Positions 6,737 through 60,585 of a DNA stretch of 64,000 nucleotides are shown piece by piece. The notes beneath the pieces were generated by a model. That model saw nothing but the letters and a program-made list of their open reading frames with translations, did not search any database and was not told the DNA's origin. Source of the stretch: Octopus vulgaris (Eukaryota); contig OX597827.1 in NCBI GenBank assembly GCA_951406725.2, positions 54,188,001 to 54,252,000 on the forward strand, given 5' to 3'. Position 1 is the stretch's first letter, and every line of letters begins with the position of its first letter. A program made the translations under genes and the position numbers.

Positions 6737-6839
6737 ATTTGTTTTTAATGTAATAATGTATATTTGTTTAAACTATTTTCTTTTTTCCTTTTTCAGGTAA
6801 GTGACTGTGTTTTTGAGTGCTTTTGATATCTTGGTAAGT
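6737..6839 (+). promoter_or_regulatory. Candidate recursive splice site (AG|GT at 6796/6797) with 37-nt cryptic RS-exon 6797-6833
   Basis: ttttcttttttcctttttCAG|GTAAGT; 58-nt AG-free zone; second donor TTG|GTAAGT at 6834. Confidence 0.65.
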
Positions 6840-7368
6840 AAATTTAATTATTGTCCTGTCTGAGTAGGTGTAAATAAGACACTCTTCTTGCTATTGGCTG
6901 GTAAGAAAAGAGATTACCTTTGTTCAGTTAATATAGAACTGGATGTTTAAGAAAATGATTATTTCGCATGAGGAAAGGAGTTCTGTAAGACTAGGGTAAG
7001 GCACTAGTCTTCAAAATAAATGAGTGAATGTACTTCTGGTGTAATACAGACAAACTGTTGCACTTAAGATTTGAAAATTTCTGAGATAAAAAAAGGCTTA
7101 TTCAGAAAAAGTTTAACTTAGTTGAAATGGAAGAGTTAACTAGACAGTATAGTACAGTGATGGGTCATAAAATTTGTATGTATTGTTTTATCACTTGATG
7201 TCAGCATGAAAAATTTCCATGCTTGGTTGTCCAAGTTTGGGCTTATTGAATTTGTACTTACAGGGTTCTTTCTGACCCATACTTTATGTACCCGTATGTA
7301 TAAGAGGGGCATCAAACCAGCACAGTAGAATAGAAAATGATCAGTGTGTTAGTCTGGGTCAGTTGCCT

Positions 7369-7597
7369 TTAACCCTTTAGTATTCAGATTATTCTGCTAA
7401 ATGTAATGCTTATTTATTCACATTGTTTTGAATTAATCATGCATTATCTCATAGCTTTGAGATTTCAATGAAGTGATTGCTTATTTTTAGAATGACATTG
7501 TAGGGTAGGTATGAGAGGCCAGATCTCACCAGTTTCAACAATAAAACAGGCAGAATATTTGAGTCGGATATGGCCAGTTTAAATACTAAATAGTTAA
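7369..7597. mobile_element. piggyBac-type MITE (family 2)
   Basis: TTAACCCTTTAGTATTCAGA ... TTTAAATACTAAATAGTTAA; homologous to 12379, 38800 and 46503 copies. Confidence 0.8.
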
Positions 7598-8930
7598 ACA
7601 TAGGTACTCCAGCTGTAACTATTCCCTTCTTTACTGTGGATATGCATTTTTAAGATGTAGGATTGTATTCAATGTAGTTCCTATTTAAAAACAGTGAGAA
7701 ATTTGTTAGGAAAAGCATGTTTTTGTCTACACTGGCAGATTGAGACATATTTAACTGGATAGAAGCTTCTCTCTTCTTAACTGTTATGCTCGAACAGTTA
7801 GCAATAGAAGGGGTATCAAGCTGTAATAATACTTGCCTTGTCAAAATACAAATGTATGAACTTACAAGAAAATAAAATTACTACCTATATATCATAGCAT
7901 ATAAAAATAAATACAAAACACAAAAAGTGGAAAAAAACAGGAAAAAAAAACATTTTGTATTCTGTGACTCAGAATCTCAGAAATTGCTGTTATAATTTGT
8001 TACCAACTGTTCTTTTGTCATTTGAACATTATAGTTATTGGAACAACTCTCATAGATATTACTAGACCACTGAAAAATAGAATTCCTACTTAGGAGAAAT
8101 ATTTCACATACATATTCAGTCTACAACATATATTAATTGGTTCAAACATATTGGTCGAAACACCTATTGAGCTGAAAAATTAATGTAGCGGCAACTAAAT
8201 CTCTCTTTTTCTCTTTCTCTCTCCCACTTTCTTTCCCCCTCTCTTTCTCTTTCCCCATCTCATATATATATATATATATATATACACACACACACACACA
8301 CACACACACAAAACATCTGGAATATTTGTGGCATGCAATTCTAATATATTTGAATTTTTAAAAATGTTTACTCCCTTGGAAAATCAAAAAGAGTTGCTCT
8401 ATTTTATATTAATTCATATACTCTTGTGAATAATAATAATAATAATAATTTCTAATTTAGAAGAAGAATAATAAATGTGCTCTATTCACTAAGTTATGAT
8501 GTATTTCCACTTGACACACCTTTTCCATGCAATGCTATTTCAATTTTTTTTTTTTTTTCAAAAATCAATGCATCATCTGTAAAATGATGTATTGGCAATT
8601 TGCCTCTGAAGCTAGTGTTATTCGTCTAGGATGCTGTTGAAGTGTTTAGAAATGTAAACAATGTTGGTCAGGCTTACAACACTAACCCATAAAAGACTTG
8701 GGGTATAGCTATATTAAGCAAAAAAAAAGAAAAAAAACATTTCATAGTTCTAAAATAACGTAAGTGGTATAATAACTGACTAAGAAATATGACCTGGAGT
8801 TACCATCATTTTAAAAATAGGTTGACAAGCCCTGCTCTATGCCCAGAAAGTATTGTAAACAAGAACGGTGTTTATTTCAGACATAAACTTTATTTTTTTT
8901 TTGTGTGTGTGTGTGTGCTTGGCATTTTTA

Positions 8931-9062
8931 GGCACAGGCGAGGCTGTGTGGTAAGAAGCTTGTTTCCCAACCACATGGTTTGGAGTTCAGTACCACTGCG
9001 TGGCATCTTGAACAAATGTCATCTACTAAAGCCTTTTGCCAACCAAAGTCTTGTGAGTGGAT
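8931..9062 (+). mobile_element. 5' part of tRNA-derived SINE (octopus OR/OK-like family A)
   Basis: GGCTGTGTGGTAAGAAG A-box-like and GAGTTCAGTACC B-box-like head. Confidence 0.75.
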
Positions 9063-9839
9063 AAATAAATCAGGCCAAATGAATTTAGTTGAAAAGAGCA
9101 TCTTTTTAAATTGTTTTATATTAAATTATCGTAACTGCTAAAAAGACCAGAGCTGCTCTAGAAAAGTCAAATACAGAGGTATCAGGTTGATGCATGAAGT
9201 TAAGAAAGTTACAGTTACAGCAGGATTAATTAGGTAAAGAATTGACTTATATATGATACGTTTTGGGCCTATGTCTGGATGGGGAATGACTGAAATTTTC
9301 TTCATAGTGAATCAACTGGAATTCTGAGAGAAAACTAAGGTATTATACCTATAAAGGCCTTAAACAGAGTACCACTTTTTGCAGTCTGATGGTCAATAAG
9401 GGAAATTGTAGATGAATGGCTTAAGAGAGCAATACAAGCCATGCAACAGTTGTTATCAGCAAGGTGGGTGTTAATATTATATACACACACACATTATTTT
9501 TTTAAAGATAATAATAACTTATTACAATTTTGAATTTATACTTGCTTGCTAATGTTCATTTGGAAATTGCTAAACAAATGTACACCGAAATAGTTTTTGT
9601 TGTAAGCCTAGCTGATGAGCTTTGAGTGTCAATTTGGAACAGAAAGCAGGATCAATTGATACTGGGATATCTGCCCTCCTCTTTGTAGTTTTACCTATGG
9701 GGATGACTATTTTTTTTTTTTTTTCAGTATATTTGCTACATTCTCCATGCGCATTTACATATAGTGAGAGATGCGTGGCTTTGGAGAGTTTTAATTCTTC
9801 TTTCCAGCAAACAGGTGTATATTGTAACCTGAATTTTAA

Positions 9840-9985
9840 CACACACACGCACACACACACACACACACACACACACACACACAACACATATATATACATA
9901 TGTATACACTCGCACACACATATATACATATGTATGCACACACATATATACATATACATATGTATATATATATATACATATATAT
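9840..9985. repeat. Compound (CA)n/(TA)n microsatellite
   Basis: Direct reading; similar tracts at 8261-8310, 10560-10665, 11590-11656, 13210-13310, 14802-14834, 16388-16480, 42862-42987, 50335-50440. Confidence 0.95.
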
Positions 9986-58235: not shown

Positions 58236-59249
58236 CAAACAAGTAGGTCATTAATTTATAGAAGAAAGAGTATGAGAGACAGCCAAATCTTGAGGTATAT
58301 CCAAGTCAATACTACATTGTGAGGGAGTAATGTTACTAGAAACTTATAATCAAAATGTTTCAGTACTAAGCAAATTTCCAAATTTGTGAACATCAATTGT
58401 TATGTATGCGTATAGAAAGATTTATATAAAAACAAGCAAAACGGCCAAGTTTCCATAATGGTAAATAATTTATCAAAGGATGACGAAAGCTATTTTAATA
58501 GAATTATAAATTAAATATATTTCCTTTTACAAATGAGGTTTATAAACAACTTATAATTTGCAGACATTTTTGTTACTTTAGTTATGGTTTTGTGCAGAGA
58601 CTGGTTGTTGTTGTAATAGTAGTAGTGGTAGTGGTAATGGTAGTAGTAGGATGTAAATAGAACTGCATGCAGCTACAGATAAGATCAAAATAATTGCTTG
58701 GTGGGAACACAACGATGAATGAACTCCCATTTCAATCTTTTATTGGTTAACATTGAAATAATGATGATTTATAATTAAAAACAGCAGCAAGCTTTCGTGC
58801 CTGTTACATCATGCACTATGAGCTGTTTTACAGATGCTCTGTGACTAATTGTCAATGTTATTAGGAGGTTAAAAAGAGTCTTAACACCTTGACACTCAAA
58901 CAAGTTGACTCACTAATGTGTCACATTTTTTCTTTTTTATCTTTTGTAGTTATTTTTTTCGTTTTTTGATTTGTATATTAAAGAGACTTATTTTATATAT
59001 TTTAGTGGTCTCACAACAGAACAACAAGAAATGGTTGTTTTTTATATTGTGGCTTATGGAACTTTAACTAGTCTCTCTGATTTTTTGTTAAAACATTGGA
59101 GTCAGGGAAGTTGACCAGTTAGAACCAGGAAAGCTACTATGTAATATGCTCTCACAATTATTGCAAAAATGGAAGTTACCCTTTGATCTCACCTACACTC
59201 CTTCTCTCTTATCATCATCATCACCACCACCATCATTTCAACATCCTTT

Positions 59250-59540
59250 CCCTCTTCTTATTGTTGTTGTTATTAGTAGTAGATTTGAGATCTCTATGTG
59301 AAAGTGTTGAACTGGAATAATATGTCCTTGAGAGCAAGCTATGTCCAGCAGCTTCAGATCCCAAGGATTCTTCTTAAAATCCTTGGTTATTCCAAGCAAT
59401 ACCACCTGCAGTGGTCCCATACTACATTTGAGTTGTATCTTATCCAGTCATGATTTAAGAGTGATGGTTATCATTCCGTCCATGCCAACTACTTTTGGAG
59501 TTACATGTGCTTCATTTAAGATCCACATCTTTTAAGTTCT
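59250..59540 (-). pseudogene. R4/Dong-like (RLE) LINE 3' end remnant
   Basis: Minus translation KMW....VTPKVVGMDGMI...LQVVLLGITK./ILRRIL followed by an ACA/AAT-rich tail. Confidence 0.55.
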
Positions 59541-59639
59541 CTTTTTAATCCACAGTAATTGATTACTTTTTTATATCTTTGTCTCAAGGAACTGCTATGT
59601 CAATAATGTCACATTTTCTATGTTTCATGTGCAGGACTA

Positions 59640-59900
59640 AAATATTTGGCTGTGGTTTCACTCCCAAGACTGGTTGGTGTGTTGTGTTTTTGAGCAAAAC
59701 ACTTCATCTCACGTTGCTCTATGATCACTTCAATACCTGACAGGCAACATCAATTTGATGGAGGGAGTGAGCTAATGTACAAGACATACATTTGATCACT
59801 CTAAACAAATCATTTGTGCAGGTCATTCAGCAAAAGCTAAACACTAATACATTGTCTTCAATGGGAGAGTCCATTATTATTATTATTATTATTTTTATTA
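59640..59900 (+). mobile_element. CORE-like SINE variant
   Basis: GTGTTTTTGAGCAAAACACTTCATCTCACGTTGCTC core; (ATT)n tail. Confidence 0.65.
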
Positions 59901-60458
59901 TTATATAAATTGAGTGGAAATCAATCTGGTGAATGTGTTAGTTAATAAGGCATAAGGACAAAATGATTCTCCCCAGACACAACAAAATTAGCATTTATGT
60001 TATAATTCTTCTGAGTTATTACATGCTCTTATCCCAACCCCTGCTAAACAACTTTTCACTCCTTTTGTTATATGTTTTGTATTGTATGCATGGGCTCACA
60101 TAGCTAATATAAAAAGGATTTTTATTATTGTTATTGTTGTTATTTTCCATGTTTTCTTAATTTTTTAAAAATCAATATTTGCACATGTATTTGTAAATAA
60201 TAGTAAAGAGAAAGATAAATAAATAACAAGACATTTTAAAATGTTAATTAGATAGATGTGTTTACATATGACTGATAAAAAGGCTTTGTTTAAGATTATA
60301 TGGTTAGATTAATACTGAGAGTTTATGTAGCATAAAAGTATTTTCTAAAGCTATATGCAGTGCAGCAAGTGCTATAGATTGTTTATACATCAGAGTTATT
60401 ATTTACAGCTAAATGAAAGAATTACACAGCTAGTTTAGTAATGTAATAGATTAAACAG

Positions 60459-60585
60459 ATTTTTAAAAATATGTTTAATACCTGATTTATATTCAATAAT
60501 TATTACTGTTATAAAATTTTAATTTTTTTTTTCTCTCTACTTTTAGGTAAGCAGTCCCATAATTTCTTCTGGTTGTATGGTAATG
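60459..60585 (+). promoter_or_regulatory. Candidate recursive splice site (AG|GT at 60546/60547) with 33-nt cryptic exon 60547-60579
   Basis: ttttttttttctctctactttTAG|GTAAGC; 86-nt AG-free zone; second donor ATG|GTAATG at 60580. Confidence 0.6.

Follow-up and report, generated by a model that had tools for sequence, protein, structure and literature searches.

The window, the whole 64,000-nt stretch of DNA that we analysed, holds two look-alike splice-site arrangements on the + strand, designated site 1 and site 2. Site 1 opens with an acceptor composed of a polypyrimidine tract and CAG (positions 6774–6796; TTTTCTTTTTTCCTTTTTCAG, last base 6796), which has an AG-free zone of 60 nt. The acceptor is directly followed by GTAAGT (6797–6802), a putative regenerated donor and candidate ratchet point, and a second donor, TTG/GTAAGT (6834–6839), lies 37 nt past the regenerated one. 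The two donors delimit candidate cryptic RS-exon 1 (6797–6833), a 37-nt segment with stop codons in all three frames, and more donors follow at 6901 and 6996. Site 2, described here from its sequence only, has the same order of elements: an acceptor composed of a polypyrimidine tract and TAG (60524–60546; TTTTTTTTTCTCTCTACTTTTAG, last base 60546) with an AG-free zone of 88 nt, the candidate regenerated donor GTAAGC (60547–60552), the 33-nt candidate cryptic RS-exon 2 (60547–60579), which is open in two of three frames, and a second donor, ATG/GTAATG (60580–60585), 33 nt past the regenerated donor. The donor consensus is CAG/GTAAGT. In a count of matches to its nine positions, made in the genomic context and not a trained score, the regenerated donor outranks the second donor at both sites, with 9/9 against 7/9 at site 1 and 7/9 against 5/9 at site 2. 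Thus, both sites join a strong acceptor directly to a consensus donor of the form AG/GTRAG and combine a short cryptic exon with a second donor weaker than the rebuilt one, the arrangement by which fly ratchet points are recognised.

To rank acceptors, we counted the pyrimidines among the 20 nt that precede YAG, a simple score applied to both strands of the window. Sites 1 and 2 each score 19/20 and are the sole YAG acceptors at that level on either strand. Neither overlaps a self-repeat in the window, and the two are not copies of each other. These results bear out the sequence-only reading, which had named them as the two strongest acceptors outside repeats, on the same strand and 53,750 nt apart, and had placed GTAAG directly after both and second donors 33–37 nt further on. 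Six acceptors have at least 18/20 pyrimidines, and two of these six continue as AG/GTRAG, both on the + strand and none on the − strand. With a GTRAG background of 0.0019 per AG, the probability of at least two such acceptors at this cut-off is 5e-5; at looser cut-offs it is 1e-3 (17/20; 27 acceptors) and 0.025 (15/20; 129 acceptors), all before any correction for the selection of this window among many. Among Markov copies of the window, 300 of order 2 and 300 of order 5, none contained two such sites. GGTAA, for its part, occurs in 3.7% of random 40-nt windows.

The segment between the sites (6797–60546, + strand; 53,750 nt) is rich in repeats and probably represents intron. The earlier remark that no ordinary coding exon is evident in it agrees with our scan of 261 stop-free frames without low complexity (at least 52 aa on the + strand and at least 55 aa on the − strand, so that shorter coding exons are possible), in which none was detected. 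Specifically, one of the 261 frames scored above the Pfam cut-off, and this match is a BrkDBD fragment within a repeat (4930–5157) and not a domain of a host gene; three further matches fell below threshold and were disregarded. No Rfam family matched the window at gathering score. A protein search with 49930–50220 returned one unnamed match and none among longer proteins, a repeat-derived frame of the window had one match, a hypothetical protein of Argonauta hians, from which the likely octopod origin was drawn, and the 24 nt after site 1 had no exact match in metagenome contigs. T exceeds A by 3–4% between the sites (z 5.3 and 4.2, bases taken as independent), and this excess is absent from 1–6796 (z 0.1) and from 60547–64000 (z −0.1); its restriction to the segment between the sites is a counter-point to the ratchet interpretation. 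The observed/expected ratio of CpG is uniformly low across the window (0.20). The suggestion that the host gene is probably neural found no support, and the low CpG ratio points, if anything, elsewhere, being compatible with a methylated, broadly expressed gene body, a setting described for low CpG ratios (PMC9476566).

For site 1, we aligned Logan contigs of sequencing runs to positions 1–8200 of the window, using four of 24 runs: X1, X2 and X3, which are likely RNA, and X16, which is DNA-like. The likely-RNA label of the first three is a guess; they derive from one organism (A), X1 and X3 come from one study and X2 from another, and their contigs carry neither strand nor level. In all three, contig cover starts at position 6795, on the AG of the site 1 acceptor, and marks out a stretch (6795–7941, assigned to the + strand) that would be either a spliced intermediate or an alternative last exon. 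X1 covers 6795–7415 and 7490–7937, X2 covers 6795–7307 and 7626–7941, and X3 covers 6795–7024, so that contigs past the acceptor continue 230–620 nt into the intron in all three runs. Each of the records at the site carries letters that do not match the window: 28 ahead of the match in X1 (record 6, 623 nt, matching 6795–7415 from letter 29), 28 on the 6795 side in X2 (record 20, 542 nt, matching 6795–7307) and four ahead of the match in X3 (record 30, matching 6795–7024 from letter 5). The depth expected from these records in bin 6577–6850 (2.43, 1.11 and 0.65) equals the depth observed (2.43, 1.11 and 0.65). Because the site 1 records explain the full bin depth, 6577–6794 has no cover in any of the three runs and the 37-nt segment has no extra record over it. 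Depth therefore passes from zero to cover exactly at the site, and contig depth is flat in a view that reaches at most 1.4 kb downstream. Together with the AG that they share with the acceptor, the 28 foreign letters make 30, one below the 31-letter word of the contigs, and such an end matches what a branch leaving the last base of an exon would produce.

These observations indicate that site 1 very likely functions as a 3′ splice site of a long + strand intron, with a product that retains the downstream intron and has the shape of a recursive-splicing intermediate. The sequence-only reading had called for junctions from an upstream exon to 6797; junction-shaped contigs are present in all three likely-RNA runs, and the foreign letters they carry would be the end of that exon. 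We also considered 6797 as the ordinary donor of a 58-nt exon (6739–6796) and rejected it, as 6577–6794 has no cover and contigs pass 6797 in all three runs. Elsewhere in the aligned region, an X2 record at 874–1067 matches without differences and ends at an A-run with no preceding AATAAA, consistent with technical ends at A-runs and with transcription of the upstream region. The contig joints amount to 321 rows, and the 15 listed fall in repeats.

The same break at 6795 might in principle reflect a DNA difference in organism A, such as an insertion or rearrangement, or DNA in runs whose RNA label is a guess, with the motifs a coincidence selected from the many windows screened. Insertion differences do occur nearby, since record 14 of X16 jumps over 6324–6402. 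However, in three of three runs from two studies the break coincides exactly with the acceptor AG, and X16, from the more distant relative organism E, reads through site 1 unbroken (6403–6944, with 20 differing letters and three gaps) and has it intact, which makes this explanation highly improbable. Alternatively, a spliced leader could be trans-spliced to site 1, or a short non-coding transcript could have its first acceptor there; foreign letters from a branching source at a strong acceptor would then give contigs of the same appearance. We regard this as extremely improbable: spliced-leader trans-splicing is, according to PMC3795323, not established in molluscs, no coding frame follows site 1, and GTAAG at both sites would go unexplained.

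At its 3′ side, the cover stops at 7937 in X1 and 7941 in X2, 26–30 nt past an AATAAA (7906–7911), the spacing of a poly(A) signal in a last exon, and before a U/GU-rich stretch; signal, genomic A-runs (7899–7950) and U/GU-rich stretch together occupy 7899–7966 on the + strand and could constitute either a poly(A) site or an internal priming site. Record 8 of X1 has 17 unmatched letters past 7937, as a polyadenylated end would give, and an AATAAA at such a distance from a random position is expected in only 4.3% of cases. Accordingly, site 1 might do no more than open an alternative last exon of 1.14 kb (6797 to about 7937) formed by intronic polyadenylation, with GTAAGT idle and site 2 separate or a chance occurrence. 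A precedent is offered by mouse brain, in which 46 of 84 junction-supported AGGT candidates were unannotated exons and 19 were recursive (PMC8797253), figures that also count against the ratchet interpretation. Nevertheless, the cover ends within genomic A-runs, the X2 record reaches 7941 without unmatched letters, 6 of the 27 A-rich tracts of the window have an AATAAA nearby, and three earlier AATAAA motifs (7015, 7540 and 7871) are passed by the cover. In addition, the longest stop-free frame of the covered stretch is 55 aa, and nothing requires a last exon to begin with GTAAG, here a perfect rebuilt donor against a background of 0.001–0.002 per AG; nor would such an exon account for the like layout at 60547. 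We therefore consider a last exon as the sole role of site 1 unlikely. Because the DNA-like run is also thin in 7947–8200 (depth 1.58 versus about 5.8), the gap in RNA cover there was not counted as evidence.

The 37-nt and 33-nt segments could instead be small cassette exons of the mature RNA, with or without re-splicing, the first as a poison or 5′ UTR exon and the second as a frame-keeping, microexon-like one. Both have strong acceptors, long AG-free zones and donors close by, the 33-nt length is divisible by three and leaves two frames open, and expressed RS-exons are known in flies (PMC8605326). Only site 2 has the form of a frame-keeping neural microexon, as the site 1 segment, with 37 nt, has stops in every frame. 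Moreover, in all three likely-RNA runs the contigs cross 6834 unbroken and no extra record was found over 6797–6833, a weak counter-argument given that contigs drop rare forms. On balance, such exons seem distinctly improbable.

Taken together, the data are best explained by fly-type ratchet points in a mollusc, of which the site at 6797 is probably one. In this mechanism, an upstream exon ending in AG would be spliced to site 1, rebuilding a donor of the form AG/GTAAGT. The donor rebuilt at 6797 would then be joined to an acceptor further downstream, for which the look-alike at 60547 is a candidate. The role of the 37-nt and 33-nt segments would be confined to exon definition of the two sites, and splicing would skip them, since the stronger rebuilt donor would outcompete the second one. 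Part of the intermediate might undergo cleavage and polyadenylation near 7937 as well, a side branch that would not refute recursive splicing. The earlier proposal of stepwise intron removal is partly supported, in that site 1 behaves as a used acceptor whose product keeps the downstream intron and in that the rebuilt donors are the stronger ones; the upstream exon as the source of the foreign letters, the second splicing step, the use of site 2 and one intron shared by both sites are inferred.

The mechanism is already known, with recursive splicing on record in flies, mice and humans (PMC13149111); what differs is the lineage, as we found no report in the literature searched. The sequence-only reading knew of no description for cephalopods or other molluscs, which agrees with our search of the literature on octopus, squid, cephalopod and mollusc, which leaves out most subscription journals, so that an unseen report is possible. 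Giant introns alone seem not to demand ratchet points, judging from lungfish data (10.1101/2024.12.11.627982). An RNA-supported mollusc site would fill a lophotrochozoan gap and would put to the test two origins of exon-defined ratchet points: inheritance from the bilaterian ancestor, or emergence wherever introns lengthen. A broader and rather doubtful possibility is that octopods use fly-style ratchet points with cryptic 33–37 nt exons for their giant introns, that this is likely ancestral to bilaterians, and that the site 1 acceptor doubles as the start of a polyadenylated last exon, with the rebuilt donor switching between completion of the long gene and an early end. If octopod ratchet points are real, recursive splicing would extend to a third bilaterian branch. 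Contigs that start at an intronic AG/GTAAG with a 30-letter foreign end would allow an inexpensive survey of whole genomes.

Sibley et al. 2015 reportedly described recursive sites and RS-exons in long genes of mammals. The mammalian cases Hs6st3 and Lsamp resemble the present sites in having AG/GT followed by an RS-exon donor and in the competition between rebuilt and downstream donors, and differ in being defined by nuclear over poly(A) enrichment and saw-tooth coverage (PMC8797253). In particular, the criterion of Moon and Zhao is junction-read enrichment by a factor above two in nuclear total over poly(A)+ RNA (PMC8797253). The Drosophila ratchet points with cryptic RS-exons in Ubx, kuz, Bx and luna share with our sites an acceptor adjoining a GTAAG donor on the same strand, a short cryptic exon, a second donor that is the weaker one, distances of tens of kilobases and, for site 1, a likely intermediate that retains the downstream intron (10.1101/006163, PMC8605326, PMC6110457). 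Fly ratchet segments range from 2,596 to 63,580 nt, so that the spacing of 53,750 nt lies within the fly range, near its top (10.1101/006163), and in insects and mammals, too, the second donor is described as the weaker of the two (PMC8605326). In contrast to Drosophila, the host here is likely an octopod mollusc, and RNA cover ends 1.14 kb on at a possible poly(A) site. The segments, at 37 and 33 nt, fall below the approximately 50 nt of flies (PMC8605326), a further counter-point to the ratchet interpretation.

Predicted ratchet-point sites of sea urchin, mosquito, bee and beetle share the sense-strand excess of (y)n cag/gtaagt, and in the large introns of four insects and of sea urchin such motifs show a 4- to 22-fold enrichment in the sense orientation (PMC2773006). 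The window has two per 64 kb on the + strand and none on the − strand, against 0.5–2.2 and 0–0.12 per 100 kb in that survey, which used other scoring (PMC2773006). The survey spans 13 genomes with no mollusc or other lophotrochozoan and offers no RNA evidence (PMC2773006). Finally, the locus has in common with alternative last exons formed by intronic polyadenylation an acceptor that is very likely in use, cover over about 1.1 kb and a terminal AATAAA with a U/GU-rich stretch, but it differs from them in the perfect rebuilt donor at its start and in the same-layout partner 53.7 kb downstream.

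In site 1, the first of two candidate recursive splice sites on the plus strand, a pyrimidine tract leads to a CAG whose last base is 6796; GTAAGT starts at 6797, and a second donor, TTG/GTAAGT, lies at 6834. Site 2 repeats this layout 53,750 nt downstream: its tract runs into a TAG that ends at 60546, GTAAGC starts at 60547, and the second donor, ATG/GTAATG, is at 60580. Each element described in the sequence-only reading (acceptors, GTAAG motifs, second donors, spacing and shared strand) is present. That reading had called these the two strongest 3′ splice sites outside repeats, and scoring every YAG acceptor on both strands by the pyrimidine count of the preceding 20 nt bears this out, with 19/20 at each site and no acceptor ranked higher. 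GTRAG directly follows two of the six acceptors with at least 18/20 pyrimidines, both on the plus strand; the binomial chance of two such acceptors is 5e-5 at this threshold, 1e-3 at 17/20 and 0.025 at 15/20, and among 600 Markov-generated versions of the window none carried two such sites. The two-site pattern exceeds chance for a single window, but the window was selected from many, so the motifs alone would not settle the recursive-site reading.

A run search with 1–8200 listed 24 runs, all as contigs and none recorded as RNA. The top three by shared words (kind unrecorded) had word shares of 0.54, 0.53 and 0.35, which means that either the sequenced organisms are close relatives or coverage is incomplete. 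Four runs were aligned to 1–8200. Three, all of organism A, had the highest word shares among those guessed to be RNA: X1 and X3, from study P1, and X2, from study P2. The fourth, X16, is large and DNA-like and belongs to organism E, a relative. At 6797, where the sequence-only reading expected an upstream exon to be joined, junction-shaped contigs are found in all three likely-RNA runs, from two studies. Specifically, a contig alignment begins at 6795, the AG of the acceptor, after 28, 28 and 4 leftover letters, and extends past the second donor to 7415, 7307 and 7024. The DNA-like run is continuous over 6403–6944 in a single piece; a DNA difference or coincidence is a very improbable source of the shared start. 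The 28 leftover letters and the shared AG make 30, one below the 31-letter word length, as we infer would be expected of a contig branching from the final base of an exon with a further continuation elsewhere. No second piece for these records is among the matches listed for 1–8200, so the leftover letters probably derive from outside that interval. Most simply read, these contigs, which give neither strand nor level, join an upstream exon with a terminal AG to 6797 and retain the intron that follows; trans-splicing or a non-coding transcript is the least probable origin.

In the likely-RNA runs, the depth in bin 6577–6850 is that given by the 6795-start records alone, so 6577–6794 is uncovered and no extra record lies over the 37-nt segment (6797–6833). 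An ordinary donor at 6797, belonging to an exon directly before it, is ruled out by the uncovered 6577–6794 and by contigs running past 6797. Upstream, two donor-like AG/GTGAGT sites (1447 and 1928, plus strand) have weak acceptor tracts, and the likely-RNA contigs give no cover just before 1928. A short-repeat fragment at 6324–6402, skipped by X16 record 14, is likely inserted sequence that organism E lacks. A>G differences on the plus strand at 6847, 7086 and 7093 in X1, the first also in X3 and none among the differences listed for X2 and X16, may reflect either allelic variation or A-to-I editing.

We consider recursive splicing at both acceptors, through exon definition and donor competition, the probable explanation. 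The second donor would define the short segment after each acceptor as an exon, and splicing of the upstream exon to the acceptor would create a new AG/GTAAG donor. This rebuilt donor would beat the second donor, and the next piece of intron would be removed, leaving no trace in the mRNA. The rebuilt and second donors match the consensus at 9 versus 7 of 9 positions at site 1 and at 7 versus 5 at site 2. A second splicing step, use of site 2 and one intron shared by both sites are likewise what we infer. The 37-nt segment has stops in all frames, so its skipping would matter if the intron interrupts coding sequence; the 33-nt segment of site 2 (60547–60579) keeps the frame. That the two segments are small exons included in the mRNA is improbable.

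Further downstream, cover ends at 7937 in X1, with 17 unmatched letters, and at 7941 in X2, with none, after an AATAAA at 7906–7911 (plus strand), with a U/GU-rich stretch beyond. A 1.14-kb alternative last exon, opened by site 1 and its only product, is therefore a real rival, albeit an unlikely one. In a mouse study, 46 of 84 junction-supported AGGT candidates were unannotated exons and 19 were recursive (PMC8797253). However, both ends also fall within genomic A-runs, and whereas 4.3% of random places carry an AATAAA at a matching distance, 6 of 27 A-rich tracts have one nearby. Furthermore, an X2 record at 874–1067, free of differences, ends at an A-run without a preceding AATAAA, which suggests that such ends can be technical. 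For recursive splicing, the prior is better than in mouse because the motif is near perfect and repeated on the same strand, and because ratchet-like motifs are 4- to 22-fold enriched in large introns of invertebrates, not vertebrates (PMC2773006).

The window has 33% G+C and plentiful microsatellites; 13% of bases belong to short dispersed repeats with a match elsewhere in it, and both sites lie outside these. T exceeds A by 3% window-wide (25 of 32 blocks), which fits a plus-strand intron, but the excess is restricted to the segment between the sites; it is absent from 1–6796 and 60547–64000, both short flanks. No ordinary coding exon had been evident between the sites. Among 261 stop-free frames of the window (148 plus, 113 minus; minimum lengths 52 and 55 aa, low-complexity frames excluded), one reached the Pfam cut-off, a BrkDBD fragment at 4930–5157 (plus strand, E 6e-6) within repetitive DNA, presumably from a DNA transposon; short coding exons may still be present. 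No Rfam family matched in the window. A frame of the commonest repeat matches one hypothetical protein of Argonauta hians (E 9e-8; 84% identity across 23% of the query), the single search result that points to an octopod, although the look of the repeats also fits one. A different frame, at 49930–50220 (plus strand), has one relative, P0001 (65% identity), and no Pfam match; we take it to resemble a LINE ORF2 fragment. A 583-nt inverted self-match at 15586–16168 has a MITE-like layout, and two 185-nt copies in inverted orientation (44560–44744 and 45428–45612), spaced by about 680 nt and 88% identical, might pair into double-stranded RNA within the pre-mRNA. CpG observed/expected is low across the whole window (0.20, the window value alone), which would fit a gene body. 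It lends no support to the earlier suggestion of a probably neural gene, since DNA methylation in octopus concentrates in gene bodies and accompanies constitutive expression (PMC9476566).

Recursive splicing itself is a known mechanism. The available portion of a 2026 review treats flies, mice and humans and leaves molluscs unmentioned (PMC13149111), and our literature search on recursive splicing in octopus, squid, cephalopods and molluscs, with subscription journals and bioRxiv supplements outside its scope, found nothing recognisably on the topic. This case contributes junction-shaped evidence, in contigs of likely RNA, for one site in what is likely a mollusc. Both sequence features of a Drosophila ratchet point, as defined in 10.1101/006163 and PMC6110457, are present at sites 1 and 2, and no result went against the other fly criteria examined: a junction to a known exon, saw-tooth depth, exon skipping, an intron location and conservation. 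In its proposed working, too, the arrangement resembles the Drosophila ratchet point, with an exon-defined acceptor and a rebuilt donor; exon-defined recursive splicing with donor competition has been demonstrated genetically in flies (PMC8605326).
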